Source: Candidatus Latescibacterota bacterium
GTDB taxonomy: Bacteria > Latescibacterota > UBA2968 > UBA8231
Direction: 5' to 3'
Assembly: GCA_965217585.1 (NCBI GenBank)
Contig: OZ244561.1
Coordinates: 5,248,001 to 5,312,000 of the forward strand
Length of the DNA stretch: 64,000 nucleotides
Shown here: positions 2,384 through 64,000 of the stretch, one piece after another
Layout of the letters: the number at the start of each line of letters is the position of its first letter
Numbering within the stretch: position 1 is the stretch's first letter
Program-made: the position numbers and the translations under genes
The notes under the pieces: model-generated
The model's database searches: none
The model's input: only the letters and a program-made list of their open reading frames with translations
What the model was told of the DNA's origin: nothing

Positions 2384-4402
2384 ATGACACATCGTCTCAT
2401 CGGTTCCCTTCTCAAACTGCCGCAGTCGTTACAGATAGTCCTTCCTTTGCCAATTCTCCTTCTGCTGCTGTCCGTGTGTCCAACCAGCGCGCAGGATGTT
2501 TTTACGGTCGGCGGCGACGAACGTTCTTGGCTCAATTCTGGCACAACACCTGGGGGCGTGATCGATTTTGTCGAGCAATTGGGAACTATCGAGGACGCCA
2601 ACGGCGAAAAAGTGTTCGCCGTTGGTTTGGATTCCCTGCAAAACTGGATCATGCCGCTGCGCTTGCGCTCTGATTTCAACATTTCGCTCGGTGTTCTCGA
2701 GCGGGGGGGCACTGTAGATATTCCGGGACTGGATGCCAGCCAGAAAAATCCAGAGCAATTGGAGGGCATGCTCAATGGCGACCACCGAGTGGCTTTTGAT
2801 CGCAAGTTCGTGGCCGGCCGCATCGTGCGCAACAACGGCGTCACCATTCGCATTGACCTCGGTGCGCGCTTCGGAGTGGACCGAATTGTGTTCTATCCGA
2901 GGATGACGGCGTCGTTTCCCTTTGGGAACGAATTCATGCGGGGATATGAGTTGTTCCTCAACGACGGTTTGCCGCAAAACCTCTTTGCCAGTGGGCAACC
3001 CATTTTTACCTCGCCGGTGCGGCGCGATCCAGACAACCGCGAGGCCAGAGTGGACGCACAGATCAACCCCCAATTTGTCCGCTTTCTGCAGCTCAAGTCG
3101 ATTTCCACCCTAGGATTTGAAATTGACGAGATAGAGGTGTACGGCAGGGGGTTCGTACCGACGGCCAGCTATGTGTCCAATGTGCTAGATCTGGGCGAGG
3201 AGGTAGTCTGGGGGCGAATCGCTTGGAGCGAAGTGGCCGCGGGCAATAGCGCGGATTCCAAAATAGAAATCCGCGTACGTAGCGGGCGGGATACGACGCC
3301 AGATGTCTTTTTCCGCAATGCCAATGTAGGTGGTCGGCAACCCGAATATGTGTCCACCGATAGCGAGGGCAATAAGCTGACAGAAGAAACCTTCGAAAAA
3401 CTGGCGAAGAACCAGCAGGGGCCTATCAAATCCGACACCGACAACGGCTGGGTCCAGTGGCAAGTGGTCGACAATGGTAGCCCTCTGACGGTGCCGGCAC
3501 CACGGCGCTACTTCCAGTTCCGCATCGACTTCACCAATCTGAGCCTGGATGCTAGTCGCGCTGTCGCCGACTTGGGCTTCCAGTTCGCACGCCCCCCAGT
3601 TGACCGCATCGTCGCCGAGGTGGGACCACCGCGGACCGAGGTCGGCAAACAGACGACTTTTACGTACTTCGCCCGCATCACCAATACTACGGGCCGGCCG
3701 GGATTCACCCGCTTTGAAATCGAAACCCCGGCTCGCATCGCGGCCATCCATTCGGTGGAGATCCAAGATAGGGCGGGCAATCGCCTAGATGGAGCCGAGT
3801 TCAGCAGCGATCTGGCCGGTGTGTCTTTGCCCCTGCGCGTCGGATCGTTCTCCATTGAGGCGGTGGAGAACGACCACTTTGCCCTAAGCTTACCCTTGGT
3901 TGACGCCGATGGCACTCTTTTGAAGATTGTCTTTGATGCAGCCGTTTTCCGCTATGGTACGCGTTTCCAAGGGCGGGCTTTTGCCGATGCCAGCGTACAA
4001 GTGCCGCTGCAGACCGAAGGCGGGGATGCTTCAGCCGAACAGGATACCGACGAGTTGCTGGTGCGAATTCCCGTGGGCTCGCAGGTGGCTGGTCCGCTGG
4101 CAATCCAGCCGCGGACCTTCACCCCCAACGGAGATGGGGCCAATGACGTGGCGGAAATAAGCTATGCGGTTCTGCACCTGCTCGAACCATCGCCGAGCGA
4201 GGTAAATATCTACGACTTGACTGGTGGCCGCGTGCGGCGGCTCAACGCTGCCGAGGTCCAAAACGGCCGTATCCAGCTACAGTGGGACGGTCGTGGCGAC
4301 GACGATCGCCTAGTACCGCCGGGCATCTACTTGGCGGTAGTGGAAATTCGCTCCGACCGGGAGACCGAGCGGCGGTCCAGCAGTGTGTCCGTGGTATACT
4401 AG
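2384..4402 (+). CDS. Secreted protein with discoidin-like domain and C-terminal FlgD-Ig domain (short class)
   Basis: Signal peptide; DLGARFGVDRIVFYPR; PRTFTPNGDGAND...WDGR...PGIY; ends SVVY. Paralog of 61857-63914. Confidence 0.75.
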   Translation: MTHRLIGSLLKLPQSLQIVLPLPILLLLLSVCPTSAQDVFTVGGDERSWLNSGTTPGGVIDFVEQLGTIEDANGEKVFAVGLDSLQNWIMPLRLRSDFNISLGVLERGGTVDIPGLDASQKNPEQLEGMLNGDHRVAFDRKFVAGRIVRNNGVTIRIDLGARFGVDRIVFYPRMTASFPFGNEFMRGYELFLNDGLPQNLFASGQPIFTSPVRRDPDNREARVDAQINPQFVRFLQLKSISTLGFEIDEIEVYGRGFVPTASYVSNVLDLGEEVVWGRIAWSEVAAGNSADSKIEIRVRSGRDTTPDVFFRNANVGGRQPEYVSTDSEGNKLTEETFEKLAKNQQGPIKSDTDNGWVQWQVVDNGSPLTVPAPRRYFQFRIDFTNLSLDASRAVADLGFQFARPPVDRIVAEVGPPRTEVGKQTTFTYFARITNTTGRPGFTRFEIETPARIAAIHSVEIQDRAGNRLDGAEFSSDLAGVSLPLRVGSFSIEAVENDHFALSLPLVDADGTLLKIVFDAAVFRYGTRFQGRAFADASVQVPLQTEGGDASAEQDTDELLVRIPVGSQVAGPLAIQPRTFTPNGDGANDVAEISYAVLHLLEPSPSEVNIYDLTGGRVRRLNAAEVQNGRIQLQWDGRGDDDRLVPPGIYLAVVEIRSDRETERRSSSVSVVY

Positions 4403-4428
4403 GGGCTAGCCAAGTGAGGAGGGGGATT

Positions 4429-7098
4429 TTGAGCAAGCGCTATCTGATTGTGGTAGGTGCTGTTCTCTGCGCGCTAGGCTGGAGTGCGCCGACTTTGGTT
4501 GGTGCCCAAGCGTACGACTCGCGCATGGGTAGAGTGAAACAGGGTGGGAAGGTGGATTTTTCTCCGCAAGGACCGGGGGTATTATTCGACGCCCTAGATC
4601 CGGCAGTACGCAAATGGTACGTCCCCCAAGAGCTGTATAAGGAGTACCAGTGGAGACAGTGGGAGTACTCCAACTACGCCCGCGAGCCCTATCAGCGCTA
4701 TGTGGACACCGCGTTGGAGGGCGATTTCTTCTACGATTTCTTCGGCAATCTAGTCACCCGAGGCTGGTTGATCTACGATTGGCAGCAAGATCGCCCCCAG
4801 CAATTCGGCAGTAGCATCCTCAAGACCAACAGGTTCAACCAATGGTTCACCCGAGTAGCCGTTTCCTCGGACCACAAGGGCCAATACCACTATAGCATCA
4901 CGATTGGCGATGAGATCCGCACTACTTTGACGCCGATGACTTTTTCTAAACCCACATTCAACGGCATTCAGTGGGACTTTGCTGCCGACAAGTACCAGGG
5001 TACTCTACTACTGGCCCGCCCCAGTCGGCCGGCCGTGGCCACCTCTTTGGATATCCCCGATCAGAAGACCAGCGTCACCAACTTACTGGGTGGGCGAGGT
5101 ATCGTTCAGGTCGGCGACTTCGTCCAGGTCGGGGCGACCTATGTGACCGCCTTCCAAGGTCAGACGCTATTCGACGATTTCACCGGCAACCCTTTTGCGG
5201 GCGGGGCTCTGACCACCGACCAGAATGCGCTACCCATATCCCGCATCATTATCCGGCTGTCGGACGACTCGCCCGCAGACGGGGTGGGCGGGGCGGCCCT
5301 GTTTGACGACGAGATCATCATCGAGGATGTGGACGGCAACATTTTCCGAGGCAGTGCCATAGGATTCGAGCCCATACGCGAAGGGGGGTTCCAACGGGTG
5401 GGGTTTTTAGCTGCGGACGGAGACGAGCGCATTACTCTCACCTACGACTTTACTGACCCTTTGTACACCGGACCCGATCCTACGACTATTGAAAGAGTAT
5501 CCTTTGAATTGGTGATCTCCAACGACTACAAGGTGGAAATCACGTCCGACCGGCAGACCAACCGGGACTCACAGCCCGTTTTCTTGCTGATCGAACGGGC
5601 CCAGAACAATATCCGCGACAACTCCAATCAGCGACTGTTGCAATTCGACTATGGTCTGCCCACGGCCAATACCATCCTTGGCGTTACTTTAGAGTCCAAC
5701 AAGGTTTGGGGTTTTGACTTGTACGGGGAGTACGATTTCAACAATCAGTACCGCCAGTATCCCAACCTCAATCTAAAGGATCATCGCAAGGCGGTTAACG
5801 ACGCCCAGGCATGGATGTTCAACCTGTCCAAGGCGTCCTATCCTTGGTTCGTCTTTCTCGAAGGCTATAGCATGGACGCGGACTATTCTACCCGCACCTT
5901 CCTAGCGGGTACTCGGGGACAGGACGAAATCGATTACGAAGACGAAATATCCTATATCTACGAGTTCGTCGAGGACAACGATGACCAAGACCGCCGGCCG
6001 GACTGGAACCGCTATAGTATGCTGTCGGACAATGCGGTCTTTCCGGGTTTTGACGAGAACAACGATTTCGTCTCGGATTTCAACCAGAACGATACGGAGG
6101 ATCGCCAGAACTTCATTCCCGATTACGAAGAGCCCTTCCTGCGCTATCACGCCGATAGACCCGAATACCTCTTTGGCGTTGACATGAACAACAACGGCTG
6201 GATCGACCGCTTTGAAAACGACGAAGAACCCGATTATCCCTATGGGCGCGACCACCGTGGCTACAATATCTACGCGGGAACCCACATCGGGCCCGAGGCC
6301 CGGCTAACCGTCGGGCGTTTGCGCGAAAAACTGCTGGCGGGGGATCGCAAAAACGAATCCACGTACCTGCTCTTCACCTACGAAAGGGATTTTGCCCAGT
6401 TGGGCCGTTTGCGGGTGTTCGACAACTTCAAACTGGTCGAGGACGACATTCCCGACAACCTCTTCCAGTGGGTGCAGCCGTCTAATTCCCGCGGTACTCA
6501 ACAGCGCGTTTTTGATTTGCTCCCGGCTCGCGACACCTGGGTCAACACTTCCTATGTACAGTTCGATTTCACGCTCGTAGGGAACCTGAATGTAATCAAC
6601 AAATTCAAGACTGAAATCTACAACCAGCGCCGGGATCAGCGCGACCTGCGCGGCACGGCTAGCTTTGTCGGTCTCATCAACAAAGTCGATTACACTTTCC
6701 CAGTGAGAAACATCGAACTTGAACCGCGCTTCAAGAGCGAATTTTTGCGCGAGCGCCCCGTGCGCAAGCGCGACCCGGAGCGCCGCGAGTTGACTGAGAC
6801 GCTTTTTCTTATTGCCCGCATTCCCCTGCTCTCCCATACGCTCATCGAGTTGGGACTAGAACTGTCCCATTTTGAGCAGTTCCGCGACGACGAGGAGGGG
6901 GTGCCGGTCAATCGCGACTTGGAGCCGGATTCTTTCAGTCGCATTGTCGCGGTGCAATTTAATAACTCTTCGGATTACTTGGGCTACAGGCTCCATCTGC
7001 AGACGGGATTTCGCCTGCAGAAGCTGACGTTTGAAAATCTGCCCCCTAGCACGACTAGCAAGATATTCATGACGGCCTATGCAGGGCTGGAACGCTAG
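4429..7098 (+). CDS. Large acidic secreted protein, putative outer-membrane beta-barrel
   Basis: TTG start after GAGGAGG; signal peptide; Asp/Asn-rich DxNxD/NG motifs; amphipathic beta-strand C-terminus; strong paralog of 54228-56888. Confidence 0.65.
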   Translation: MSKRYLIVVGAVLCALGWSAPTLVGAQAYDSRMGRVKQGGKVDFSPQGPGVLFDALDPAVRKWYVPQELYKEYQWRQWEYSNYAREPYQRYVDTALEGDFFYDFFGNLVTRGWLIYDWQQDRPQQFGSSILKTNRFNQWFTRVAVSSDHKGQYHYSITIGDEIRTTLTPMTFSKPTFNGIQWDFAADKYQGTLLLARPSRPAVATSLDIPDQKTSVTNLLGGRGIVQVGDFVQVGATYVTAFQGQTLFDDFTGNPFAGGALTTDQNALPISRIIIRLSDDSPADGVGGAALFDDEIIIEDVDGNIFRGSAIGFEPIREGGFQRVGFLAADGDERITLTYDFTDPLYTGPDPTTIERVSFELVISNDYKVEITSDRQTNRDSQPVFLLIERAQNNIRDNSNQRLLQFDYGLPTANTILGVTLESNKVWGFDLYGEYDFNNQYRQYPNLNLKDHRKAVNDAQAWMFNLSKASYPWFVFLEGYSMDADYSTRTFLAGTRGQDEIDYEDEISYIYEFVEDNDDQDRRPDWNRYSMLSDNAVFPGFDENNDFVSDFNQNDTEDRQNFIPDYEEPFLRYHADRPEYLFGVDMNNNGWIDRFENDEEPDYPYGRDHRGYNIYAGTHIGPEARLTVGRLREKLLAGDRKNESTYLLFTYERDFAQLGRLRVFDNFKLVEDDIPDNLFQWVQPSNSRGTQQRVFDLLPARDTWVNTSYVQFDFTLVGNLNVINKFKTEIYNQRRDQRDLRGTASFVGLINKVDYTFPVRNIELEPRFKSEFLRERPVRKRDPERRELTETLFLIARIPLLSHTLIELGLELSHFEQFRDDEEGVPVNRDLEPDSFSRIVAVQFNNSSDYLGYRLHLQTGFRLQKLTFENLPPSTTSKIFMTAYAGLER

Positions 7099-7262
7099 TG
7101 GGTTTGATCTTCGCAAAGTTGAATCAGGTTGAGATTGCAGCGATATAACATGGCGATCTGTTAGCAGCTGAAAGGAGGAAAAAAAACAGTCGTCGTTTCA
7201 GCCCCTATTGGGGTAGCAAAAGACACAATGACTCACTCACTAACTTAAAAAGAGGTGTTGCA

Positions 7263-8135
7263 ATGAAGAGAATTAATGAGACAGCAATTGCTTTACTGGT
7301 CTCGGCCCTCATGGTTGGCGCGGCTTTTGGCCACCAAGGGGAGATGAGGTTCATGTTCCAGTTCCCGGATCACCTGACGCCGGTGCTGGACGGCGATATG
7401 TCGGACTGGGACATTGTAAGCGATGTGTACAAGATCAAAGCCGAAACCATGTTCAACCAGTTCGGCGCGCCCATGGATCTGAGCGACTTCAATGCCTCGC
7501 TCATTTGGGCCTACAACATCAACGACGGCAAGGCCTATTTTTCAGCTTGGATTGCCGACGACTTCATCAACGACACCGAGAAATGGTCCACGACTACAGA
7601 TTGGGACCACTCCGGCGGTATCTTTCGCGGCTTCGACCAAGGGGATGATTTCGAGACCCGCTGGGCCAGTGCCCAAGCCCAACGCTACGATCTGGCTGGC
7701 CCAATTTTCAGCTCTTCCGGTTATTATACCCGGATTATCGATGGCTCCAAAGCTTGGGCGGGCCAGCCCCCTTACGTGGAGTGGGCCGGCAAGTTTCTCC
7801 GCGGCGACGTCAATACCCAAGAGCCAGCTGAAATGTTCGGCGAATACTCCGTTGTGCCCTTTGACGACATCCATCCCGACGGTGCCGACCAGAGTGTTCA
7901 ACACAATTGGGTCGAAGGCACAGTTATCGGTATAGAGGTCAACTGGGGCGACAAGGATGCCGATCCCGGCTCCTACGACGATGCCTATTGGTCTGGTTTC
8001 GGTGGCGTAGGTGCTTCTAGGGATGCCGACCAGTTCGGCGACTATCTGTTGGCACCCATCGAAGAGGGGCTACCCGATGCCGGAGCTACCGCAGTCGAGG
8101 CCAGCACTTGGGGCCAGATCAAGTCCACCTTCTAA
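7263..8135 (+). CDS. Secreted CBM9/DOMON-like protein with C-terminal AVE..TWGQIK motif
   Basis: RBS AGAGGTG; signal peptide; PVLDGDMSDWD and AYFSAWIADD patterns; ends TAVEASTWGQIKSTF. Confidence 0.6.
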   Translation: MKRINETAIALLVSALMVGAAFGHQGEMRFMFQFPDHLTPVLDGDMSDWDIVSDVYKIKAETMFNQFGAPMDLSDFNASLIWAYNINDGKAYFSAWIADDFINDTEKWSTTTDWDHSGGIFRGFDQGDDFETRWASAQAQRYDLAGPIFSSSGYYTRIIDGSKAWAGQPPYVEWAGKFLRGDVNTQEPAEMFGEYSVVPFDDIHPDGADQSVQHNWVEGTVIGIEVNWGDKDADPGSYDDAYWSGFGGVGASRDADQFGDYLLAPIEEGLPDAGATAVEASTWGQIKSTF

Positions 8136-8184
8136 TAAGGCCGACTCGACTGCCTGTACCTATAGACGTTGCAGGATAGTTTCA

Positions 8185-8216
8185 GGCGGGATTTACGGGC
8201 GACTGTAAATCCCGCC
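8185..8216 (+). terminator. 12-bp stem-loop after the CBM9-like gene (terminator or mRNA stabiliser)
   Basis: GGCGGGATTTAC ... GTAAATCCCGCC followed by GTTCTCTT (weak U-tract). Confidence 0.6.
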
Positions 8217-8253
8217 GTTCTCTTAGTTGGCGACCAAGCAAAGGAGGCACTGG

Positions 8254-10104
8254 ATGAGACAGGTACTGATTCTAGTCCTGACAGTGTTGGGGATGGGAGT
8301 GGGCTATCGGGCCGAGGCGCGCCAATTTTACCAATTGGGGGGCCACGTTGGAAACCCTTGGAGTGAAAGCGGCACCCTGAGTTTCATCGATGTGGCAAAA
8401 GTGCCGGGTGCCATCCGCCCATTCAGCGCCGAAAGTGGCGAGAACCTGATTGCCTCGATGGGCGAGCGAAATGGCGACCTTACCAGCTTGGTGAGCATTT
8501 ACACCCTACCGGCGAATTGGTTAGAAGACCGCGTGTTGGTAGTAGATAGCGATGCGAACACGGCTTTTGTACACCCGCCGCGCATCAATTTCTTTCGCGG
8601 CCCCGGGTTCTTCTATACCACGCCGATGTTCTTCGATCTGGGGGCACCATTCCCCATCGAAGGGATCCGCTTTGCAACCCGCGCCGATCATCCGGGGCAC
8701 AAGATCCGCCAGTTTAGGCTTTCTATCAACGACGGCAGGGAAGAGAGCAAAAACGAAAAAGGAAATCTCATCTGGGCCTTGGTTCACGAAGAGAAGGACA
8801 ACTTGAGCCCAGTAGTAGAACTGGATATAGAACCCCGGATAGCACGCCACGTCTATCTCCATCCCTTGGAAGTGGGGGAGACTTGGGAAGTGGCCGAGTT
8901 CGAGGTGTACGGTCAGGGGTTCGTTCCCCAAGCCTCATTTCTGTCCGATCCGATCAATCTGGGACGAGCATCCAGTTTGGGACGCATTTGGTGGAACGGT
9001 CAACTTGATATAGGAGCGAAAATAGTCATCCAGAGCCGCAGCGGCAGCGATGACCAGCCCGAGGTCTACTGGCGCAAGACCGGGGTGGGGGGAGAGGAAG
9101 TGCCATTCGGAGCCAATGGTCGGCCCATGAGCCGCCAAGCGTATGGAGCCATGCCCCAGAATGTGCGAGGGGGCATTACCCAGGATCTGGAAAACTGGAG
9201 CGTATGGCACACCTATGAATATGCGGACGGACTCGCCGGCAGCCAGATTCGCTCTCCCAGCCCCCGGCAGTATGTGCAGTTACACATCGCTTTTTTCTCC
9301 GCCAGATTGGCGGGGGGACAGATCGACTCGCTGTTTTTTGAATTTTCCCAACCCCCTGTAGTCACCGAGGCGATTGGCGAGATCTACCCTCCTTTTGTCG
9401 AGTCACCCGACCCGGTTCGGTTCACCTATGCGGTGCGGACTCGACTGGAGGCAGAGCAATCCGGTTTCAATGTTCTCGAGGTGCGTACGCCCGCTCGTCT
9501 GGAGGCCATCCACGAGGTGCGTATCGACCGCGAAGTAGTCGATTTTACCCCGAATTTCGATCCGGCAGATCCCCACCAGTTCGCCGTCCAATTTGACCGC
9601 ATCGACCAAGACCAGACGCTGCTAGAAGTAGATTTCGACGCCCGAGTCTTCAACTACGGAACGACTTTCAGCGGCGCAGTGTCGGATGCGGACCGCGACG
9701 AAGTACCCCAGAGCGTGATTCCCGGAGATGCTATGAGCGAGTTGTTGAGCGACGCCTTGAACGTCCGCACGCCGCTCAAGGGCAGTCTGCTCAGCGTCGT
9801 GCAGGTGGTTCCCAACCCGTTCTCACCCAATGGAGACGGCGTCAACGACCAAGTGCAGTTCTCCTATACGTTACTGCGTCTGACCGATGTCGTGCCCCTT
9901 GCGACGGAAATCTACACGCTGGCGGGAAACCGAGTGCGCACCTTGGGCGGCGAGGAGGGGGGTAGCGCGCTTTATCAAGCTACTTGGGACGGTCGGGATG
10001 ACCAAGGCGAATTGGTAGCCCCAGGACTATACATTTACCGAGTCGTGGTAGAAGCGGGCAGTGGCCGGGAGGAGCGACTGGGGCCTATCGCTCTAGTGTA
10101 CTGA
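8254..10104 (+). CDS. Secreted FlgD-Ig-tailed protein (short class)
   Basis: RBS AAGGAGG at 8241; signal peptide; PNPFSPNGDGVND...WDGRD...PGLYIY; ends ALVY. Confidence 0.75.
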   Translation: MRQVLILVLTVLGMGVGYRAEARQFYQLGGHVGNPWSESGTLSFIDVAKVPGAIRPFSAESGENLIASMGERNGDLTSLVSIYTLPANWLEDRVLVVDSDANTAFVHPPRINFFRGPGFFYTTPMFFDLGAPFPIEGIRFATRADHPGHKIRQFRLSINDGREESKNEKGNLIWALVHEEKDNLSPVVELDIEPRIARHVYLHPLEVGETWEVAEFEVYGQGFVPQASFLSDPINLGRASSLGRIWWNGQLDIGAKIVIQSRSGSDDQPEVYWRKTGVGGEEVPFGANGRPMSRQAYGAMPQNVRGGITQDLENWSVWHTYEYADGLAGSQIRSPSPRQYVQLHIAFFSARLAGGQIDSLFFEFSQPPVVTEAIGEIYPPFVESPDPVRFTYAVRTRLEAEQSGFNVLEVRTPARLEAIHEVRIDREVVDFTPNFDPADPHQFAVQFDRIDQDQTLLEVDFDARVFNYGTTFSGAVSDADRDEVPQSVIPGDAMSELLSDALNVRTPLKGSLLSVVQVVPNPFSPNGDGVNDQVQFSYTLLRLTDVVPLATEIYTLAGNRVRTLGGEEGGSALYQATWDGRDDQGELVAPGLYIYRVVVEAGSGREERLGPIALVY

Positions 10105-10112
10105 TAGAAGAC

Positions 10113-11849
10113 ATGAGAAACAGAAAACCATGGACTTGGCAAGGATGCGGGCTGGTACTCATATGGAGTCTCGCGGCGTGTTCTCCGGGTGTGGAGGTCG
10201 TCCTCGAACCCGGTGTGGTGGCGCGCATCGATTCCACTTCCATCACGGCTGCCGAAATGCGCGATTTCGTCGTCCAGATGCCCCAGTCCTTGCGCCTCCA
10301 GAGACAGGGAGACCTAGTGCGGGAGCGCTACCTGCGCAGTCTGCTGGGCAAGTACCTGCTCGTACTGGAGGCCAAAGAACGGGGATTGGATACCGCCGAG
10401 GTGGTACAGACTAAGGTGATGCACTACTGGCGACAGCACTTGGTCGACACCTATCGCCAACTCGCACTGGCCCCCAATGTGCAGGTTTCTGAGGAGGAGG
10501 TACGCGCTTATTTCGCCCACAGTGGCCTAGACCGCAAACGTCAGATGGCGGGCATTCTGGTGGAAGAGGACAGCACAGCAAAGCAAATCTATGAGCAACT
10601 CGAAGCGGGCGAGGATTTTGCCCAACTGGCCGCCGAGTACACCATAGACGAACGGTCGGCTTCCGAGGGAGGCATACTGGGATTTATCGATCTGGAGCAG
10701 GCCCGCAGGTTGCAGATTCCAGACGAGATGTTTCGCAGTCTGCCGAGTGAACAGCTATCCCCGATCCTGCCCATGGGCACGCGCTACCAAATCGTGCGTT
10801 TCCTCCAGGACCAGCCCGTTCCGCTAGAAGAGAAACGACAGCAGATTCGCGATATACTCTACGAACGCAAGCGACTAGAGCAGGAAAGGGCGGAAATCGC
10901 GGCCCTCGCCCGCAAGCTGGATGTGCAGCTAGTGCCAGAGGGATTAGATCTTCTATTGAATAAAGCGGCACTCCACACCCGGGTGCGACTCGCTCATCTG
11001 ACCACCGAGGAGGCGGGCCAGCCCCTCTTTACCTATAAGGCGGGCCAGATCGCTCTGGGAGATTACCTCAATGTTCTGTGGAAGGATATGCGGGCCCTGT
11101 CCGGCTGGGGTGTACGGGACAGTGCCGAGGTGGTTGATACAGCGCGGGAACTGGTTTTGATGCCGGCGCTGTTGGCAGAGGCGGCGCAGCGGGCCGGGTT
11201 GGAGGAGATGGCGGATGGACAACAGCGGTTGGCGGAAATACGCACGGAATCCATGATTAAACAGCTACGCCAGGAAGAGGTCATCGACCAATCAGAGGCG
11301 AGCCAGGAGGAAGCTAGGGATTTTTACGATGACAATGAGGAGTTGTTCAGGGAACCGGCCCAATACATCGTTGTTGAAGTGCTGGTCGAGACCGAGGTGG
11401 AAGCCGCCGGTTTGCTGCGCGCCATCGCACAAGGTGCGACCTTGGGAACGCTCGCCCAAAAGCACACCATCCGCCCAGGTATGAAGAAAGAAGATGGCTT
11501 GCTGCATCTGGGTGAGTACGAGCGTTTGACCCTGCCGCGGCTCTTCAAAGCAGTAAAGGCGGCCGACCTCGACAAAATCACCGGTCCGGAGCCTGTTGCA
11601 GGCGGATACAGCATTTTCAAAGTTCTCAACCGCCAGGGGGGAGAATTGTCTCCCTTTTTTCAAGTCGAGAAAAAGGCGCGGGCCTTGGTGCGTGGACAGA
11701 AGCGAGAGCAACTTTTCGAGGAATTGATAGATGACTTGCTGGACAAGTACAAAGAGCGGATCGCCGTATCTGACAGCGCGTTGACGGCGGCTCTACCCGA
11801 TGCGTTCCTGCAGCGCCAAGCATGGGAAGCCCCGACCAAGGGCGAATAG
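10113..11849 (+). CDS. PpiC/parvulin-type PPIase lipoprotein (SurA/PrsA-like, two rotamase domains)
   Basis: Lipobox LAAC; GEDFAQLAAEYTID..SASEGGILG; second rotamase-like domain. Confidence 0.8.
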   Translation: MRNRKPWTWQGCGLVLIWSLAACSPGVEVVLEPGVVARIDSTSITAAEMRDFVVQMPQSLRLQRQGDLVRERYLRSLLGKYLLVLEAKERGLDTAEVVQTKVMHYWRQHLVDTYRQLALAPNVQVSEEEVRAYFAHSGLDRKRQMAGILVEEDSTAKQIYEQLEAGEDFAQLAAEYTIDERSASEGGILGFIDLEQARRLQIPDEMFRSLPSEQLSPILPMGTRYQIVRFLQDQPVPLEEKRQQIRDILYERKRLEQERAEIAALARKLDVQLVPEGLDLLLNKAALHTRVRLAHLTTEEAGQPLFTYKAGQIALGDYLNVLWKDMRALSGWGVRDSAEVVDTARELVLMPALLAEAAQRAGLEEMADGQQRLAEIRTESMIKQLRQEEVIDQSEASQEEARDFYDDNEELFREPAQYIVVEVLVETEVEAAGLLRAIAQGATLGTLAQKHTIRPGMKKEDGLLHLGEYERLTLPRLFKAVKAADLDKITGPEPVAGGYSIFKVLNRQGGELSPFFQVEKKARALVRGQKREQLFEELIDDLLDKYKERIAVSDSALTAALPDAFLQRQAWEAPTKGE

Positions 11850-11883
11850 ATACGTAGGTACGTCTTATCCGGGACAATAGGTT

Positions 11884-14583
11884 ATGGAACACCGCTTACC
11901 TGCGCAGTACTCGATGATTTCGGAGACGGCCGCGAGGAGATCGGGTCTTTTGTCCCCGGCGCTCTGTTTTGTAGCCCTTTTTTTTCCTATGGCTCTAAAC
12001 GGGGTATGGGCCCAGTCGAGGGGTTACAGTCTGGGCGCGGATCGGGTAGAGGTGCGGACTCAGGCGCACTGGCAGGCTTGGGATTTTCCGAGGGATATGG
12101 TGACTATAACGCCGTCTGGCTCGGTGCAGTCCAGATTTGTACAAGTACCGCACAACGCCATATTGAATGCGGCCGACTTCAGCTATCCCATTGATGGCAG
12201 CTTGCGAGATCAGTACGCCAATTCGTTCCAAGATGAAAATAACACTCTGCTGGCGCGCGGCGGTATCAAAAGGGCTGGTTCAAATCCGCAGCTAGCGGAG
12301 CGGGCCATTGATGCAAATCCAGTTACAGCTTGGGAGCCGGACCCGGCCGATCCTCTGCGGGACTGGGTGTTGGAGATCGATCTTGGCCGTCTGGTGTCGG
12401 CCACCAAGGTCGTCGTGCGCTTTGCCGAAGAAGGGGACCCGTTCCTGCAATTCAGGGTGCATTCGGCAGGGGGGCAAAACCCCTTCGGCACGGCTGACCG
12501 CAGCGGTGCCTTGGACTATACCTTGGTCGGCAGTACCACTCAGCCCAATCGCGACCAGCGGGTCTTTGAGTTTGACCTCGCACCGCTGGGTACCCATACA
12601 GAGGAGTGGAGCGGCCGCATTATGCAGTACCTGCGCGTCGCGGCCACGGCTACCAATGGCGAGCGGGCGCAACAGCTCTCTGCCGAGGATTATCAGGCGT
12701 TGGCGGCAGAGAACCAAGGCGCTGTGGAATACGTCTGGAAAATCGCCGGTGAAGAGCGTCTAGTAACGGCCGAGCGCTACGACCAGTTGCCACTTGAGCA
12801 GCAGGGCGGGGTGCGCTATTACCGCCGCGAACGACCTCAACTCGCCGAGGTGGAGGTATGGACTATAGGCGAGAACATCGCCTTGGGAATCGTAGCGCGC
12901 GGCGGTAATTTGCACGACGTCAATCCCAATTCTTCGCCCGAACTTGCCGTTGACGGCAACGTGCGCACCGAGTGGCAGGGCATGGTTTACTTTCCCACCG
13001 GAGAGACCGCCGAGTGGGGTTTGTTGAACGTGAATCTGGGCTCTCACTTCACGATCCATGCCGTGCGCATCATTACCCGCGTCGGAGGAAGAAACCTGAT
13101 TGGTTATCTATTGCGCGGTTCGGACGGCTCGCTGGCACCCGATGGCAGTTTGATCTGGGAGGAATTGAGTGGTGAGACGCGGCAGCTAAACCAGAATACG
13201 CGGCTGTTCGAGGATCGCTTTGCGCCGCGTCCGATACGCTTTCTGGAATTCCGCAACCTAGATATTGCCCGCCGCACTAGGGCCCATGAAGGGCACCGGA
13301 TACTGAGCACGGTGACCGAAATCCAAGTCTTCGCCAACGGGCACTTGCCGATCCTCGAGATGACTTCCGACCTCATTGATCTGGGGAGTTCCAAGACGCT
13401 GACGACCATCGAATGGGAAGCTGACACTCCCTCGGGCACGGCGGTGGAAATCCGCACCCGCACGGGAAACGAGCTGCGCGAAGTAAACCGCTATTTCAAA
13501 AAAGACGGCACGGAAGTAGCCAACAAAGAAGAATACGAGGAGCAGCCGTCTTTCTACAGGGGGGAGATTCTTACCGAGTTCCTGCCGGGACCGGGCTGGA
13601 GCAACTGGAGTCAAGTCTACGTCAAATCGGGCGAAGTCGTACGTTCTCCCAATCCCCGGCGCTATATGATGATCCAGACGAGACTGCTCAGTGAAGACGC
13701 AGCCGCGGCCCCCAGCTTGGATTCGATCCAGATCCATTTCACAGCGCCGCTGGTAGAGCACATCGCTGGGGAAATAGAGCCCAAGCGGAATGTCCCCCTC
13801 GGCGAACTCACCGATTTCGACCTTTTCATCCGCCCCTCCTTCGCTGCTCGGGACCCAGGATTCGACCGCATCCGCCTCATAGCGCCTTCGCGAGCGAATA
13901 TCGAACTGCGCCAAGTGAGTTTGGGAGACGAAAGCGGATTTGCAGCCGGAAACGAGGAAATATTTGCCGAAGTAGCAAAAGGCCGTTTTGAGAATGAGGC
14001 GGGGGAGGAGCTGGAATTGACCAAGGTGGCAATTGACACTCTGCAACTAGGCCTGCCAAGGATACTGAAGCGAGGCAGTGCGGATATTGTGCGGATCTCT
14101 TTTTCGTCGCGCGTCTTCCTGAGCGGTGCCACTTTTGCAGCCGAAGTTGGGCGTTCGACGCAAGCGGACAACTGGCAGAGGGTGGATCCGGCGGACCCGG
14201 TAGGAGACGAATTGGCCGCCGGTGAGGGGTTGACAGTATTGACGACCGACCGCGGCGGACAGATCGGGATGATCGAGGTAGATCCCTCCACTTTTACCCC
14301 AAATGGCGACGGCATCAACGACACGGCTGTCTTTTCGTTTGCCGTGCTCAAAGTCAATGTAGCCCGGCAAGTAGCGGTGGATTTCTACGACTTAGCAGGC
14401 CGGAAAGTGAGGCGTCTTTCTGAGAGGCGCAATATGGCGAACGGGCTGTATCGCCTTGTCTGGGACGGACGGGACGAAGGGGGAACTTTAGTATCCCCAG
14501 GCCTTTACCTCGCCCGTATCGAGGTAGATGACGACGCGGGGGATGCCAACTCGGCTGTCCGCCTAGTTGGGGTGGCGTATTGA
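11884..14583 (+). CDS. Secreted protein with discoidin-like domains and C-terminal FlgD-Ig domain (long class)
   Basis: AIDANPVTAWEP, LEIDLGR; PSTFTPNGDGIND...WDGRD...PGLY; ends GVAY. Paralog of 56913-60173. Start uncertain. Confidence 0.75.
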   Translation: MEHRLPAQYSMISETAARRSGLLSPALCFVALFFPMALNGVWAQSRGYSLGADRVEVRTQAHWQAWDFPRDMVTITPSGSVQSRFVQVPHNAILNAADFSYPIDGSLRDQYANSFQDENNTLLARGGIKRAGSNPQLAERAIDANPVTAWEPDPADPLRDWVLEIDLGRLVSATKVVVRFAEEGDPFLQFRVHSAGGQNPFGTADRSGALDYTLVGSTTQPNRDQRVFEFDLAPLGTHTEEWSGRIMQYLRVAATATNGERAQQLSAEDYQALAAENQGAVEYVWKIAGEERLVTAERYDQLPLEQQGGVRYYRRERPQLAEVEVWTIGENIALGIVARGGNLHDVNPNSSPELAVDGNVRTEWQGMVYFPTGETAEWGLLNVNLGSHFTIHAVRIITRVGGRNLIGYLLRGSDGSLAPDGSLIWEELSGETRQLNQNTRLFEDRFAPRPIRFLEFRNLDIARRTRAHEGHRILSTVTEIQVFANGHLPILEMTSDLIDLGSSKTLTTIEWEADTPSGTAVEIRTRTGNELREVNRYFKKDGTEVANKEEYEEQPSFYRGEILTEFLPGPGWSNWSQVYVKSGEVVRSPNPRRYMMIQTRLLSEDAAAAPSLDSIQIHFTAPLVEHIAGEIEPKRNVPLGELTDFDLFIRPSFAARDPGFDRIRLIAPSRANIELRQVSLGDESGFAAGNEEIFAEVAKGRFENEAGEELELTKVAIDTLQLGLPRILKRGSADIVRISFSSRVFLSGATFAAEVGRSTQADNWQRVDPADPVGDELAAGEGLTVLTTDRGGQIGMIEVDPSTFTPNGDGINDTAVFSFAVLKVNVARQVAVDFYDLAGRKVRRLSERRNMANGLYRLVWDGRDEGGTLVSPGLYLARIEVDDDAGDANSAVRLVGVAY

Positions 14584-14717
14584 CTTTTGCGCTGCGTCAG
14601 CGGTCGCACAACGGCCGTCGGAAACTTTAAGGCGGCTTCTCACCTATCCGCCCGCTCCGGCCTTGATACAGCAAAGATTCCCAGTTTAATTGGAACGTGC
14701 CTACGAGCGCGGGATTA

Positions 14718-15317: not shown

Positions 15318-15393
15318 GATTGCCCTACCCGGCCTCCAGCGGTACTTTCTTGGCCGAAATCGCCCTTGTTCCCATCATCTCAGGAGACTTCTC

Positions 15394-20428: not shown

Positions 20429-20453
20429 CATGTTTGGGGCGATGCTGTACTGT
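20425..20453 (+). promoter_or_regulatory. Candidate sigma70 promoter for the 20524 gene
   Basis: TTGACA (20425-20430), 17 bp, TACTGT (20448-20453). Confidence 0.45.
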
Positions 20454-20523
20454 GGAAATGGAACTGGGGTGTCGGGGTGGGCGCTTCTTGGCTTTTGCAC
20501 ATTTAATTTACAGAGCTTGCGTT

Positions 20524-23252: not shown

Positions 23253-23265
23253 GGAGTCGCCTGAA

Positions 23266-56912: not shown

Positions 56913-59900
56913 CTAATAGACTACGGCCACGATGCGGGCCAAGGCCGTGTCGGTGGCACGGTCCGAATCGGCACCGAAATCAATCCGGCATATATAAAGT
57001 CCTGGCGGTACGGTGCGGCCAGCCGCATCGCGGCCGTTCCAGCGGATTTGCTGGGGGCCTCCTGCCACTTGGGTGCTGTTTTCCCATATCAGGCGTCCGT
57101 CCAGTGAGTAGAGGTGCAGACGCGCTTGGCGTGCTTGGGTCACTTGGAAGATGGAAAACGCGACGGTCAGTTCGTCGTTGACCCCGTCGCCGTTGGGCGT
57201 AAATGGGTTGGGGGCCAAGCTCAGGTCGCCGAGGACTTGCCCTCCCACGGGGATGCTCAGCGTCAGTTGGCGGCTGTCTGTTAGCGCAGTGGCGTCGCCT
57301 GGTTCTACTTGCTGCCACAAGCTCCCGTTGGTGTCGGCGGCGACGCGGCGGACAAAAGGCTTAAAGGTGGTTCCGTTGCGAAAGATGGCGGCGGCAAAGC
57401 GCAAGTGGATCAAGCGGCCTGGCCCCAAGACGGCACCGCGTTCGGCTGCCGGCAGCGCGTAGTAGGCTGTGCGCGTCAGGGAGTCGCCCAAGGCGTCAAA
57501 GGGCGATTGGGCCCCGCCGCCGCGCAGTTTGCGAAAGTAGCGAATCGGCCCTTGTTCGGCTGGGGGCAAGGCATCGTACTCAGCGCGGCCAGAAACCGCT
57601 GCCAAGCCGTCGGCGGTCTGCCGCAAAAAGAGAATGGCCCCGCGCTCGGCCTCGTTGAGCAGGCCGTAGGCCACCTCGGTGATTGGGTCGCCGTCCTCGC
57701 CCACTATGACTTCGGCCCCTTGGGGGGTGATGCGGTGGTAGGTCTGGACCGTCTGCTCTGCAGGTAGGGTCTGGTGTGGTTGGGGCAGCAGGACCCAGAT
57801 AGAGTCGGCGTGGTTGCGCCGCACTTGGGCGATGGCCCCAGAAGCATCGGTCAGGTGGCCATCGGCTGCAAGGGTAAATGTCTGCAAGGGACTTCCTCGG
57901 CCTAATTCTTCCTCGGTCCCCATGCTTAGGCTCAACAGGTGCAGCGCGAGTCCGGGAGGAGCTTGTAAGAGGATTTCGTCAAAGCCTGGAGTGCGGTTGG
58001 CCGCCGGCTCGTTTATGAATACCGGGCGCAGATACAGGTCAAACGTGTCCAACCGGCCGACCGAGGCCTGCGTGGGCCATACTTCGGCGGTGAGGGCGCG
58101 GGCCACTGGAGGGGCCAGCTCTACTTCGATTGACCTAATTGAGGCGGCTTGTAGGCGATCTTGGCTGGTAAAGCGCACCTGTAACTGCATGTAATTGCGC
58201 AGCCCGGGGGAACGGACCCGGTCGCCCGGCTGTAGGTACTGCTGGCTCCAAGGACTCCAGCCGCTGCCGAGGGCAAAGGTGGTGTCGATAGGCCCCTTCC
58301 AACTGGTGATCAGCTTGTCCCATTCTTCTTTGGTTTTCTCGTTGCCATTGACGTCGAAATGGCGAATTTGCTGCACCAGCAGATCGCCGGTGCGCGTCCG
58401 CACTTCTGCCGTCGTGCCGGGGGGGTGGGTGCCGGGGGGTGGATCCCAGCGGATGGCACCGAAGTTGCGCGGTCCCGGCAGGCGAATGATATCGGACACC
58501 AGCGCAGCTTGGCTGACAAACCCTTCGGTGTAGAGCAGGACTTCGGTCAGGTCGTAGAAAAAGCCCGAAGTCCGCGCGATGCCCGGCAGGCGCAGGTTGA
58601 GGAAGCGGATGTCTAGGGGTGGGTCAAAGAGGTCGGCGGCGCGCGTAAATCCTCCTTCCATGCGGTCGGGTAGGCTGATCTGTCGCCACCGCAGCCGGCC
58701 GTTGGGATCGCGGCTGCCGTCGGCCACCTCGGCGATGTAGCCGGGAATAAAGGGAACGGCCAAGCGCATGGCGTCGAGCCAGACGCGGGCACCAATATCG
58801 ACGGTGAGAATGCCAGCGGTGGGGTTGGAACTAAACCACGCCGGCATGCGGAAGGTGGTGTTCCAGTCGCCGTCAAAGCCCCCAGCCGGGACTTCCGGCC
58901 CGGTAAAGTTAACGCTACCGCCTCCGTCAATTAGCTTAGGCGATAGGTTGTCGCCCCAGCCCCAGACCTCTACTTCGGCCAGCCGGGGCCGCTCGCGGAT
59001 GTAGTACTCTTTGCGGCCTTGCTGTTCTTGGGGGAGGCTCTCGTAAATAGCCTGCTCTACCGGTTCCTCAAAGCCGACGTCGTCGCGGATGTAGTAGAGC
59101 ACATCGCCCCGTTCGTCGGCTGGCAGGGCATCCCACGCCGCCTCGTCGATTTGGTGTGCCCGCCCCAGCTTGCTGTCGCCAATGAGAATGCGCACGGTCT
59201 GGGCCATGCGGCCGGTCCACTCGGTGCGACCGTCGTCGTCTTCGGAAAAGCCGGGCGTGTCCTCAGAAGAAAACTCCATCGTCCGCTGGTCCGTATTGGG
59301 AGCCTGGGTTTGGCCGACCACCTTGAATTGGAGCACGCGGCTTTGGGCTTGAATGAGCTTCTGCTGGGGGGCTAGCATGACGCGGAACTGGCGGAAGGGA
59401 TCGCCCAAGGTCTCATCGACAAAGTGCAGCACTACTTTCTCGACCACGACCGCGCGGCCCAAGTCGATTTCGATCCACCACTTATCTGGAGTGGCCGCTA
59501 GGTCCGGTTCCCAAAAGGTGGTGCGGTCGCCATCGACAATGTGGGGGGCTAAGGCTTCGTTGGAGCCTACTCGGCTGACGCCGACGCGCTGGACATAGTC
59601 GTACACCGGAAATGGGATTTTATCTTTAGCGCCAAATTCGCGCGTCGATGCTACCCCCGTGCGTTCGTTGCGCAGGCTCAGGGTCACGGTCTTGCCGTCG
59701 CTGCTGAGGGTGGTATCGACGATGGTTAGGAGGCGGTCGTCAATGGGTATCCGGCTGTCGTTACCGGGGAAGCGCTTGAAGTCCCGGTTGAGAAATTTGA
59801 TCAGTTGCTCGGCTTTGCCGAGGGCAACGCTGCCGTCCGCTTCCAAAGTCGGGGTGCGCTGGAGGTTCATAATCGCCCGGTCTGCCTTGCGGATGCCCGG

Positions 59901-60173
59901 TTGGTCCACGGGTTTGGCAAATATTTCGCGATCTTCGGCGATGATGTTGTACACGTGGCGAAAGAAATGGGGCTTGACAATCCCATCTGGATGCACATCG
60001 ACCACGTGGGAAGGCCCGCTCCAGTGTCGCCAGTAGGAAGCCTTGTCGACGATGATGCGGTCGCCCTGCAGACGGTGGCCTAAGGGCGCTTGGGCACTGA
60101 CTTGCTGGAGGGCCAAACAGCCAAAGGCCAAGGCCCAAATTCGGCTCCAATGGCTGTAGCGCTTGCGGTTCAT
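56913..60173 (-). CDS. Secreted FlgD-Ig-tailed protein (long class)
   Basis: Signal peptide; WEPD, IEIDLGR, ERPRLAEVEVW; PNPFTPNGDGVND; ends AVVY. Confidence 0.75.
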   Translation of the reverse strand: MNRKRYSHWSRIWALAFGCLALQQVSAQAPLGHRLQGDRIIVDKASYWRHWSGPSHVVDVHPDGIVKPHFFRHVYNIIAEDREIFAKPVDQPGIRKADRAIMNLQRTPTLEADGSVALGKAEQLIKFLNRDFKRFPGNDSRIPIDDRLLTIVDTTLSSDGKTVTLSLRNERTGVASTREFGAKDKIPFPVYDYVQRVGVSRVGSNEALAPHIVDGDRTTFWEPDLAATPDKWWIEIDLGRAVVVEKVVLHFVDETLGDPFRQFRVMLAPQQKLIQAQSRVLQFKVVGQTQAPNTDQRTMEFSSEDTPGFSEDDDGRTEWTGRMAQTVRILIGDSKLGRAHQIDEAAWDALPADERGDVLYYIRDDVGFEEPVEQAIYESLPQEQQGRKEYYIRERPRLAEVEVWGWGDNLSPKLIDGGGSVNFTGPEVPAGGFDGDWNTTFRMPAWFSSNPTAGILTVDIGARVWLDAMRLAVPFIPGYIAEVADGSRDPNGRLRWRQISLPDRMEGGFTRAADLFDPPLDIRFLNLRLPGIARTSGFFYDLTEVLLYTEGFVSQAALVSDIIRLPGPRNFGAIRWDPPPGTHPPGTTAEVRTRTGDLLVQQIRHFDVNGNEKTKEEWDKLITSWKGPIDTTFALGSGWSPWSQQYLQPGDRVRSPGLRNYMQLQVRFTSQDRLQAASIRSIEVELAPPVARALTAEVWPTQASVGRLDTFDLYLRPVFINEPAANRTPGFDEILLQAPPGLALHLLSLSMGTEEELGRGSPLQTFTLAADGHLTDASGAIAQVRRNHADSIWVLLPQPHQTLPAEQTVQTYHRITPQGAEVIVGEDGDPITEVAYGLLNEAERGAILFLRQTADGLAAVSGRAEYDALPPAEQGPIRYFRKLRGGGAQSPFDALGDSLTRTAYYALPAAERGAVLGPGRLIHLRFAAAIFRNGTTFKPFVRRVAADTNGSLWQQVEPGDATALTDSRQLTLSIPVGGQVLGDLSLAPNPFTPNGDGVNDELTVAFSIFQVTQARQARLHLYSLDGRLIWENSTQVAGGPQQIRWNGRDAAGRTVPPGLYICRIDFGADSDRATDTALARIVAVVY

Positions 60174-63935: not shown

Positions 63936-64000
63936 TCAGTAGGCGACTGCAATAGTGCCAACTTGTTCTTCTGCGCCTTCGTCGGTGTCTATTCGAATGC
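63936..64000 (-). CDS. 3' end of another FlgD-Ig-tailed protein (truncated by the window edge)
   Basis: Manual translation IRIDTDEGAEEQVGTIAVAY-stop matches the tails of the five complete paralogs. Confidence 0.7.
   Translation of the reverse strand, partial: IRIDTDEGAEEQVGTIAVAY

Follow-up and report, generated by a model that had tools for sequence, protein, structure and literature searches.

The DNA analyzed here, a window of 64,000 nucleotides, covers positions 5248001 to 5312000 of the 7.32-Mb single-contig genome of a Candidatus Latescibacterota bacterium (assembly GCA_965217585.1, contig OZ244561.1). It contains two loci, A and B, of a multigene envelope module that centers on a predicted giant outer membrane β-barrel protein. 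Locus A comprises six open reading frames (ORFs) on the plus strand, separated in order by gaps of 26, 164, 91, 8, and 34 bases. The first gene, S (2384..4402; 672 amino acids [aa]), encodes a secreted, lectin-like protein with Pfam matches to FlgD_ig (36.9 bits) and CHU_C (34.7 bits). It is followed by B (4429..7098; 889 aa), the candidate giant barrel, which belongs to no Pfam or NCBIfam family, and by X (7263..8135; 290 aa), a predicted secreted protein resembling carbohydrate-binding module (CBM) family 9, of which this copy lacks a Pfam CBM9_1 match. M (8227..10104; 625 aa) is a further lectin-like member of what we call the S/M/L superfamily and bears a PNGD-type C-terminal domain (CTD; CHU_C, 27.3 bits), and P (10113..11849; 578 aa) is a lipoprotein peptidyl-prolyl isomerase (PPIase) with two parvulin domains (Rotamase_2, 59 bits; Rotamase, 53.9 bits). 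The last gene, L (11884..14583; 899 aa), represents a recurrent class with one or more discoidin-like domains and a PNGD-type CTD; its Pfam matches to F5_F8_type_C (23.5 bits), CHU_C (25.0 bits), and FlgD_ig (25.8 bits) all lie slightly below the cutoffs.

Locus B, on the minus strand, contains S (61857..63914; 685 aa), P (60200..61855; 551 aa), again a lipoprotein double-parvulin PPIase (Rotamase_2, 64.1 bits), L (56913..60173; 1086 aa), with CHU_C and F5_F8_type_C_2 matches above cutoff (33.8 and 30.5 bits), and, directly downstream of L, B (54228..56888; 886 aa), likewise without a Pfam family. Downstream of B lies an accessory membrane protein (51998..54247, minus strand; 749 aa) with TPR families and a PMT_2 match of 21 bits, which is below cutoff; the representative of this PMT_2-like/TPR class scores 37.8 bits for PMT_2, and the class recurs in 9 of the 49 B loci of the genome. 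The M-class gene of locus B, also on the minus strand, enters the window only with its 3′ end (63936..64000; whole gene, 742 aa, genome positions 5311936-5314164), and the X-class gene (308 aa, minus strand) is found at genome positions 5314221-5315147. Because locus B runs past the window end with M and X, both window loci contain all six classes.

The original prediction, made from the DNA sequence alone, had described four gene classes repeated in two loci. All of the ORFs that it named are present, and BLASTP established its four pairings as true paralogues, with 34% identity for S (2384-4402 and 61857-63914; E value of 9e-104), 48% for B (4429-7098 and 54228-56888; E value of 0), 34% for P (10113-11849 and 60200-61855; E value of 4e-80), and 31% for L (11884-14583 and 56913-60173; E value of 7e-94). 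The motifs that it listed, DLGARFGV.R..FYPR, FEIDEIE.YG.GF.PTA.Y.S, RSG.D.TP, EIDLGR, GDPF.QFRV, and YY.RERP.LAEVEVW, are readable in the pair alignments, and its domain calls agree with Pfam: FlgD_ig/CHU_C tails on three proteins of locus A and two of locus B, parvulin domains in both P proteins, and F5/8-type-C domains in both L proteins. Signal peptides and the PPIase lipoboxes LAAC and LWGC were likewise recovered, as read by eye from the N termini with no predictor. The order of S, P, and L is kept as it had claimed, and B moves, standing after S in locus A and after L in locus B. The repetition of the module therefore stood, and the count did not: X (7263-8135) and M (8227-10104) had been missed, and the module has six classes at 49 loci of the genome.

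Neither B protein matched a Pfam family at an E value of ≤0.01, NCBIfam added none, and a B profile search of PDB sequences returned no relevant match. The plug, TonB_dep_Rec, usher, POTRA, Omp85, SLH, and PorP_SprF families of Pfam were unmatched in both copies. An AlphaFold2 model of B based on a 69-sequence alignment (predicted local distance difference test [pLDDT], 81.6; predicted TM-score [pTM], 0.80) displays long antiparallel β-hairpins with some 24 to 30 strands, a rough count from the DSSP string of the model, together with a conserved N-terminal extension, an insert at about residues 272 to 407, and a loop-rich acidic stretch at about 483 to 608. A Foldseek search with this model matched outer membrane barrels only. 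SlpA (8ae1_A; E value of 2.8e-11; TM-score [TMq], 0.27) was the best match, followed by MtrB, FimD (3rfz_B; E value of 3.1e-7; TMq, 0.19), LptD (5iv9_A; E value of 1.5e-6), and then TonB-dependent receptors, with a TonB-dependent transporter found among the generic barrel matches only (5fr8_A; E value of 6.1e-6; TMq, 0.22); the fold matches to FimD and PapC reached TMq values of only 0.18 to 0.21. Superposition by VIA gave a Z score of 14.9 for SlpA (7zgx_A; root mean square deviation [rmsd], 7.8; 396 residues aligned), to be read against a plateau of 12 to 13 for unrelated porins, and Z scores of 12.7 for SprA, 11.1 for MtrB (400 residues aligned), and 9.3 for LptD. SlpA of Deinococcus, MtrB, and the LptD-LptE pair are all very large, partner-holding barrels and are the best structural neighbors of B, but B has no sequence relation to them, its TM-scores to them are 0.16 to 0.27, and an SLH region, a cytochrome partner, and an LptE-like neighbor are all lacking. 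From sequence and model, B is predicted to be a large outer membrane β-barrel of a family of its own and not a TonB-dependent receptor, an usher, or a type IX secretion system (T9SS) component. The expectation that the large protein would be neither a TonB-dependent receptor nor a known T9SS subunit was thus borne out.

The best-conserved part of B is its acidic block, with a mean pairwise identity of 0.63 against 0.38 to 0.52 elsewhere in the protein (alignment A2). The block contains the motif D585-x-N587-x-N589-G-x-I-D593-x-x-E596, the residues of which do not vary among 26 sequences and reach 90% conservation or more among 69, and which, judging the pattern by eye, we take to be an EF-hand-like calcium loop. 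A complex prediction for B residues 87 to 889 with the CTD of S (566 to 672), run without controls, scored 0.00 and 0.22 against a mark of 0.32, which counts neither for nor against an interaction. Long frames of 1431 to 1564 aa over B in three relatives were considered as possible S-B fusions, and the one inspected (L135) proved to be an out-of-frame read-through of the upstream gene. G+C-rich DNA of this kind yields long spurious frames over real genes, such as a 1333-aa frame that runs through the upstream gene out of frame and then through B; conserved antisense ORF "families" also occur inside module genes, and frame lengths are no sign of fusions.

As for the putative cargo, S is built of a CBM32/discoidin-like domain at about residues 95 to 257, two more β-sandwich or immunoglobulin (Ig)-like domains, and a PNGD-type CTD (566 to 672) that ends in VVY. 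In the AlphaFold2 model (pLDDT, 87.3), residues 97 to 254 superposed by VIA on the CBM32 module 4zxe_A with a Z score of 14.7 (rmsd, 2.4; 129 residues aligned), and further CBM32 structures, among them 4a42_B (Z score of 14.4) and 2v72_A (Z score of 13.8), fell in the range of Z scores from 13 to 14.7 and rmsd values from 2.1 to 2.6. The domain assignment was taken from this wide VIA search; a Foldseek search with the whole S model had been set aside, having returned generic multisandwich matches only (galactose oxidase; TMq, 0.19). With the discoidin profiles, L of locus B is above cutoff (F5_F8_type_C_2, 30.5 bits), L of locus A is below (23.5 bits), and S has no match. M aligns to the S family at 32% identity. 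The model thus points to a CBM32/discoidin fold in S, with sugar binding as a putative function, and the best-conserved parts of S are this domain and the tail.

The tail of S (residues 521 to 672) superposed on the CTD of Porphyromonas gingivalis PorU, 6za2_B, with a Z score of 13.4 (rmsd, 2.2; 100 residues aligned; VIA). CHU_C exceeded its 27-bit cutoff in four of the five tails (34.7, 27.3, 33.8, and 34.8 bits) and stayed below it in one (25.0 bits). Since CHU_C passes in four of five tails, the NCBIfam type B model in none, and the type A model in one, we regard the S/M/L tail as a probable distinct, type-B-like subtype of the T9SS CTD, and by motif and profile searches it appears exclusive to S/M/L in this genome. 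A strict motif, [FYLVI][ST]P[ND][GNDQ]DGx[NQ][DE] at 60 to 120 aa from the C end, occurred in 117 ORFs of the genome, every one of them an S/M/L gene (117 of 168), and a relaxed motif was present in 126 of the 168 but in none of the 100 other ORFs found with the hidden Markov model (HMM) of the CTD; most of the 51 S/M/L proteins without the strict motif carry TPNGD-like variants and end in -V(V/A)Y. The HMM, built from S/M/L tails, matched 267 ORF C termini in all, 167 of S/M/L proteins (median, 112.8 bits) and 100 of others (median, 48.5 bits), and these others are type-A-like, with NPFNP... sequences and the ends KLLLLR or KTTKLP. The PNGDGxND-type motif is presumably the hallmark of the type B CTDs of Bacteroidota.

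The T9SS itself is encoded outside the window. SprA (genome positions 3679708-3685083; 604.8 bits) and PorU (578110-582436; 627.5 bits) scored above the NCBIfam cutoffs, and a PorV-like gene adjoining PorU scored 153.8 bits, below cutoff. Searches of the genome for PF11751, GldM, and GldL gave no match, but as 14 control genomes were likewise without a match, these negatives do not demonstrate absence. We also observed that about 100 type-A-like CTD proteins are encoded in this genome, which is not from Bacteroidota; the T9SS is still described as confined to Bacteroidetes in several reviews.

We then considered the two remaining classes. P appears from its profile matches to be a parvulin PPIase, SurA/PrsA-like but without a named orthologue, because the scores of the SurA, PrsA, and EpsD equivalog models of NCBIfam all fall far below their cutoffs, while Rotamase_2 reaches 59 and 64.1 bits in the two copies against a cutoff of 27. 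The relationship of X to CBM9 rests on a match of the X family profile to the CBM9 of Thermotoga maritima xylanase 10A (1i82_A; E value of 1.1e-5; 28.4 bits), on Pfam CBM9_1 in 3 of 20 X paralogues (best E value of 6.6e-6), and on Atlas clusters of X in which CBM9_1 is present in 13 to 94% of the members. A histidine stands just after the predicted signal peptide cut, judged by eye, in 34 of 39 X copies of this genome and 68 of 71 relatives (102 of 110). It covaries with a second histidine, H116, within DxDHSGG: both are present in 101 of the 110 proteins, neither in 7, and only 2 are discordant, and the double losses correspond to about four independent events. CBM9 chain 1i82_A, when aligned to X, has no histidine at the H116 position. 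On sequence grounds, the pair recalls the histidine brace of lytic polysaccharide monooxygenases (LPMOs) and constitutes a putative metal site, and the LPMO families of Pfam had no match in X or the X paralogues tested. Unlike the CBM32 and CBM9 modules of glycoside hydrolases, the S and X domains have no attached catalytic domain, and X adds the covarying pair. X furthermore ends in a tag, TAVE..SWGxIKS.F, in 36 of 39 copies (window positions 8078-8135). A search for W[GA]x[ILV]K at no more than 12 aa from the end retrieved 81 ORFs, the 36 X genes and 45 others, mostly small (150 to 360 aa) and located elsewhere in the genome; the tag looks like a general C-terminal sorting or anchoring tag of the organism, not one specific to the module, and we know of no described counterpart.

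The scale of the module became apparent from a BLAST census over all ORFs of at least 90 aa, with an alignment of 250 aa or more required for an S/M/L gene. The census counted 79 B, 168 S/M/L, 39 X, and 40 P genes; searching the genome with B in all six frames returned 111 match rows. When labeled genes were chained at gaps of at most 2.5 kb, 49 loci contained B; 44 of these held at least one S/M/L gene, 33 held X, 32 held P, 23 held all six classes, and 21 held two or more B genes, and paralogous B loci are 30 to 54% identical. B, S/M/L, X, and nearby P genes together occupy 691,503 bases, 9.4% of the genome. The DNA within 10 kb of B covers 17.0% of the genome, yet it holds 135 of the 168 S/M/L genes (28.6 expected), 31 of the 39 X genes, and 31 of the 40 P genes; binomial P values for this clustering overstate its significance, since clustered genes are not independent. 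Of the 79 B genes, 48 directly follow an S/M/L gene on the same strand, and 18 follow another B. The claim of a conserved, exported multigene envelope module that brings its own PPIase and exists in numerous diverged paralogues has thus held on a far larger scale.

Several other genes recur near B. A polytopic membrane protein with DUF6785/DUF6784 (an example lies at genome positions 6984039-6986027) is encoded 75 times in the genome, 33 times within 10 kb of B (12.8 expected), and is present in 25 of the 49 loci, although neither window locus has one; in one Atlas cluster of this family, OPT is found in 11% of the members, which serves as a lead only. FG-GAP/ASPIC proteins (22 of 53 genome copies) and a 273-aa lipoprotein without a family (20 of 23) also lie near B, and further recurrent neighbors are TPR proteins, PhyH dioxygenases, PMT_2/TPR proteins, DUF4159 proteins, and sulfatases. 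Upon clustering of the ORFs within 10 kb of B, the only enzymes were sulfatases (8 ORFs) and PhyH (16 ORFs, with a PhyH gene in 7 of the 49 chained loci), and no glycoside hydrolase or regulator family was recurrent. A second type of locus, found, for example, at genome positions 3752202-3769302, 4380122-4397201, and 7032218-7053578 and in a related genome (G031:C14:58784-72006), combines two or three distantly related B genes in tandem (about 30% identity) with a 1088-aa TPR/YfiO-like protein, the 273-aa lipoprotein, DUF4159, and a tailed protein of about 690 aa. In G031, a PNGD-tailed gene of 1122 aa stands upstream of three B genes in tandem, separated from them by a 307-aa ORF that encodes a possible small barrel. 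The only Pfam match of this ORF was TraF_2 (E value of 0.053); it has three homologues in the present genome, one of them beside B, and we rejected it as a general part of the module.

Beyond this genome, more than 1127 of 7998 scored candidates were B homologues at an E value of ≤1e-5. Among the 120 best homologues listed, every source-given name was "hypothetical protein," and the metagenome-assembled genomes (MAGs) were labeled Latescibacteria(ota) or Gemmatimonadetes/ota. An exhaustive HMMER search of 1.84 billion representatives yielded 783 B clusters (50% identity) at an E value of ≤0.001, and in a set with one genome per species, B relatives occurred in at least 577 stretches, of which the best 80, found with the closer alignment A2, were used for the counts of related loci. 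Nearly all of these 80 come from Latescibacterota/Latescibacteria or Gemmatimonadetes/Gemmatimonadota MAGs, with one from Handelsmanbacteria and two from "uncultured bacterium." The gene classes co-occur there as well, in agreement with the original prediction: within 10 kb of B, 73 loci have S, 68 have X, 67 each have L and M, and 63 have P, contig ends accounting for many of the absences. In 73 of the 80, fewer than 500 bp separate B from the stop of a preceding ORF whose product ends in -(V/A)Y. Among 15 loci whose B is 70 to 99% identical to that of locus A, the order S B X M P L is kept in 13, and the other two are cut by contig ends. Locus A itself has orthologues 93 to 99% identical in 12 other assemblies, with gene order kept.

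Across 168 genomes of the phylum, sorted into families numbered f1 to f13, B was present in 107, including all 75 of family f1, none of the 56 of families f2 to f4, and almost all of those of f5 to f13, and candidate B counts per genome are comparable across a whole Latescibacterota family. X and the N-terminal part of S were queried as single proteins, so that misses in distant families mean not found with that query; X was detected in 96 genomes (74 of 75 in f1, 0 of 56 in f2 to f4, 3 of 3 in f6, 2 of 2 in f9, and 13 of 13 in f10) and the S part in 88 (72 of 75 in f1, 0 of 56 in f2 to f4, 3 of 3 in f5, 3 of 3 in f6, 2 of 2 in f9, 5 of 6 in f12, and 0 of 13 in f10). SprA was found in 163 of the 168, namely, 75 of 75 in f1, 56 of 56 in f2 to f4, and 32 of 36 in the other families. 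Judged by these matches, B, X, and S are gained or lost together, and the T9SS is phylum-wide. Five genomes with B but no SprA match were examined as T9SS-free carriers and discarded as such, all five having PorU-family matches, three of them above cutoff; every B-bearing genome tested has SprA or PorU-family matches.

Contigs from RNA libraries of two studies, 95 to 99% alike, span the part of locus A between about 2300 and 12860, running across the S/B, B/X/M, X/M/P, and P/L junctions. This is consistent with operon-type cotranscription in nature, although contigs are no proof of transcription and an RNA library can hold DNA. The word depth of the contigs was highest over X in all four runs (49 to 75; bins spanning 6943-8010), although contigs cannot rank genes, and 13885-15486 has no contig cover, although contigs cannot show absence. 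Between X and M, a hairpin with a 14-bp stem, 8 G-C pairs, and no T-run lies at window positions 8185-8216 on the plus strand; the RNA contigs read through it, and the depth peak lies just upstream. A scan for promoters and terminators found no more sites than in shuffled sequence.

The loci are flanked by ordinary chromosomal genes, for shikimate kinase, M20 peptidase, carbamoyl-phosphate synthase, dihydroorotate dehydrogenase, and others. Directly after locus A, a PhyH dioxygenase fused to HEAT repeats is encoded at 15208-16875, and at 20356-23856, where the G+C content is the lowest of the window's left half (0.49), five successive same-strand ORFs of 196 to 294 aa belong to no Pfam family. 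The region between the two loci at 39029-50726 has a low G+C content (0.48 to 0.53) and encodes an SNF2-family helicase (1265 aa), a sacsin-domain protein (753 aa), and three transposase types (IS1595-like, DDE_Tnp_1, and HTH + DDE_3); it is probably a mobile or defense island.

Taken together, our analysis leads us to propose, tentatively and at somewhat less than even confidence, that the module is a T9SS accessory or surface display unit in which B would serve as a cognate anchor or shuttle, possibly a channel, for lectin-like cargo. This is the best reading because only S/M/L proteins carry the CTD tag, B almost always comes after a tagged gene, the tails fold like a T9SS CTD, each B-bearing genome tested has T9SS genes, and cognate PorP-like barrels are known from published work. 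According to two papers, type B CTD proteins bind cognate PorP-like barrels that are encoded alongside (PMC9143113; PMC12618676). In the working model that we infer, S, M, and L would be exported by Sec and would cross the outer membrane via the general T9SS translocon (SprA) by use of their own CTD subtype. B, encoded directly downstream of one cargo gene, would receive and retain the cargo at the surface, much as PorP/SprF barrels, to which B shows no homology, do for type B CTD cargo in Bacteroidota. P may act as a periplasmic holdase or foldase for the barrel or the cargo, and X may be an accessory subunit that binds a ligand or a metal. Once assembled, the unit would expose CBM32-like lectin domains, and the approximately fifty diverged copies would amount to a repertoire of capture devices.

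The closest parallel is offered by the type B CTD proteins of Bacteroidota and PorP/SprF barrels (SprB-SprF and PG1035-PorP), which likewise combine a special CTD cargo gene beside a barrel gene, many pairs per genome, and the T9SS translocon. The module differs in that B has no PF11751 match, measures 889 aa against a profile of 273 positions, and bears the acidic EF-hand-like block, in that its loci carry three cargo proteins, a PPIase, and a CBM9-like protein, and in that the phylum is Latescibacterota and not Bacteroidota. The number of module loci is 49, against 12 type B substrates reported for Flavobacterium johnsoniae (PMC9143113/PMC12618676). The module would be a new form of T9SS cargo with cognate barrels, with an appreciable probability that it is more remote than that.

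Several observations weigh against our proposal. By its sequence, B does not appear to be a member of PorP/SprF, being about three times as long as the profile, and a barrel that served only to anchor would require neither such a size nor the conserved N-terminal extension and the acidic block, which is the best-conserved part of B. Anchoring alone also leaves P, X, and the frequent DUF6785 neighbor (25 of 49 loci) unexplained. Furthermore, no cargo gene and no other B stands directly upstream of 13 of the 79 B genes, and 33 of the 168 S/M/L genes have no B within 10 kb. Finally, type B membership of the tails is ambiguous by profile scores, because the type B model TIGR04131 stays below its cutoff of 35 in all four tails that it matches (16.7 to 22.7 bits; the M tail has no match) and TIGR04183, the type A model, accepts one tail (25.0 bits against 23).

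Among the other explanations, an uptake machine with the logic of polysaccharide utilization loci (PULs) would make B a gated import channel, S/M/L the surface binders, X a further ligand-binding or ligand-modifying subunit, and DUF6785, possibly OPT-like, an inner membrane permease. It overlaps with the T9SS accessory reading, because cargo could still arrive by the T9SS; the difference is the transport role of B. Such a role stays alive because of the size of B, its calcium-loop block, its N-terminal extension, and the frequent DUF6785 neighbor. Uptake would fit the very large size of B and its best matches, SlpA (Z score of 14.9; 396 residues aligned) and MtrB (400 residues aligned), the strong conservation of the acidic EF-hand-like block (63% versus 38 to 52%), the CBM32-like fold in S and the CBM9-like one in X, and the enrichment of DUF6785 near B (33 of 75 copies against 12.8 expected; 25 of 49 loci), with OPT in 11% of one Atlas cluster as a lead. 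The scale of the module, 49 loci and 9.4% of the genome, recalls SusCD expansions, and SusC/SusD PULs likewise place a large barrel beside surface carbohydrate-binding-like proteins in tens of copies per genome. Against this, B lacks a plug, a TonB box, and any domain of TonB-dependent receptors, so that no energy coupling is evident; no SusD-like protein is present, and the module's surface proteins are T9SS-type cargo and not lipoproteins. Unlike in PULs, no glycoside hydrolase or regulator family recurs at the loci, where sulfatases and PhyH were the only enzymes in the clustering of ORFs within 10 kb of B. Neither window locus has a DUF6785 gene, and few parts of S are as well conserved as the CBM32-like domain, which is not the pattern to be expected of ligand-diversified receptors. 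We consider uptake unlikely on balance. A bolder version, TonB-independent capture and import of polymers, would have T9SS-delivered lectins sitting on a calcium-binding B channel, X acting oxidatively through His 1 and His 116, and an OPT-like DUF6785 permease; to this we attach little credence, although, if true, it would represent a new class of nutrient acquisition and a new LPMO-like family in an uncultured phylum.

The original prediction had also entertained a secretion system of its own, and an accessory of the T9SS is likelier, because SprA and PorU are encoded in the genome and the tails fold like the T9SS CTD. In a self-contained system, B as translocator and P as chaperone would export S/M/L independently of the T9SS in the style of chaperone-usher or two-partner systems, and we hold this to be very doubtful. 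A dedicated PPIase in 32 of 49 loci, a B in the size range of ushers and LptD (E values of 3.1e-7 and 1.5e-6), a CTD subtype exclusive to module cargo, and families f2 to f4, which keep SprA without the module, such that the T9SS does not require it, all speak in its favor, and chaperone-usher pili (FimD/PapC with FimC/PapD) similarly unite a large barrel, a periplasmic folding helper, and Ig-like secreted subunits in one operon. However, the tails have the T9SS CTD fold and CHU_C matches, every B-bearing genome tested has SprA or PorU-family matches, B contains no usher, POTRA, or Omp85 family of Pfam, and the usher and LptD matches are generic (TMq, 0.16 to 0.21; 0.19 for 3rfz_B); moreover, no usher Pfam family is found in the module, and its helper is a parvulin PPIase and not PapD-like. 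A variable surface coat or adhesin repertoire, for attachment to hosts or particles or for escape from phages or grazers, with B as the membrane foot of an S-layer-like array, seems improbable as well. It draws on the best structural match of B, the Deinococcus S-layer foot SlpA (8ae1_A, E value of 2.8e-11; 7zgx_A, Z score of 14.9), on some fifty paralogous loci at 30 to 54% identity, on the lectin-like and Ig-like nature of the exposed parts, and on several module genes being represented at once in RNA libraries. B, however, has no SLH or coiled-coil region, and its TMq to SlpA is only 0.27, while the 93 to 99% identity and kept gene order of locus A in 12 assemblies point to purifying selection and not to rapid variation; no invertible or recombination elements were noticed at the loci, where no systematic search was made.

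Literature searches, supplements aside, yielded no description of the module, and the available text of PMC7081726 does not mention it. New here are the census over the whole genome, the restriction of the tag to S/M/L, the joint absence of module classes across the phylum despite SprA, the paired-histidine X, and the RNA contigs. Nearly a tenth of a 7.3-Mb genome is devoted to a module without annotation. This module defines a predicted new family of very large outer membrane barrels, a candidate cargo-specific T9SS-type address tag outside Bacteroidota, and a CBM9-like family with a putative paired-histidine site. Should B be a cognate shuttle, the sorting of T9SS cargo by barrels of its own would be older and more varied than the PorP/SprF paradigm, and if B is a channel, the module would be an alternative to SusCD. 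In either case, the module probably has a central part in the contact of these uncultured bacteria with their environment.

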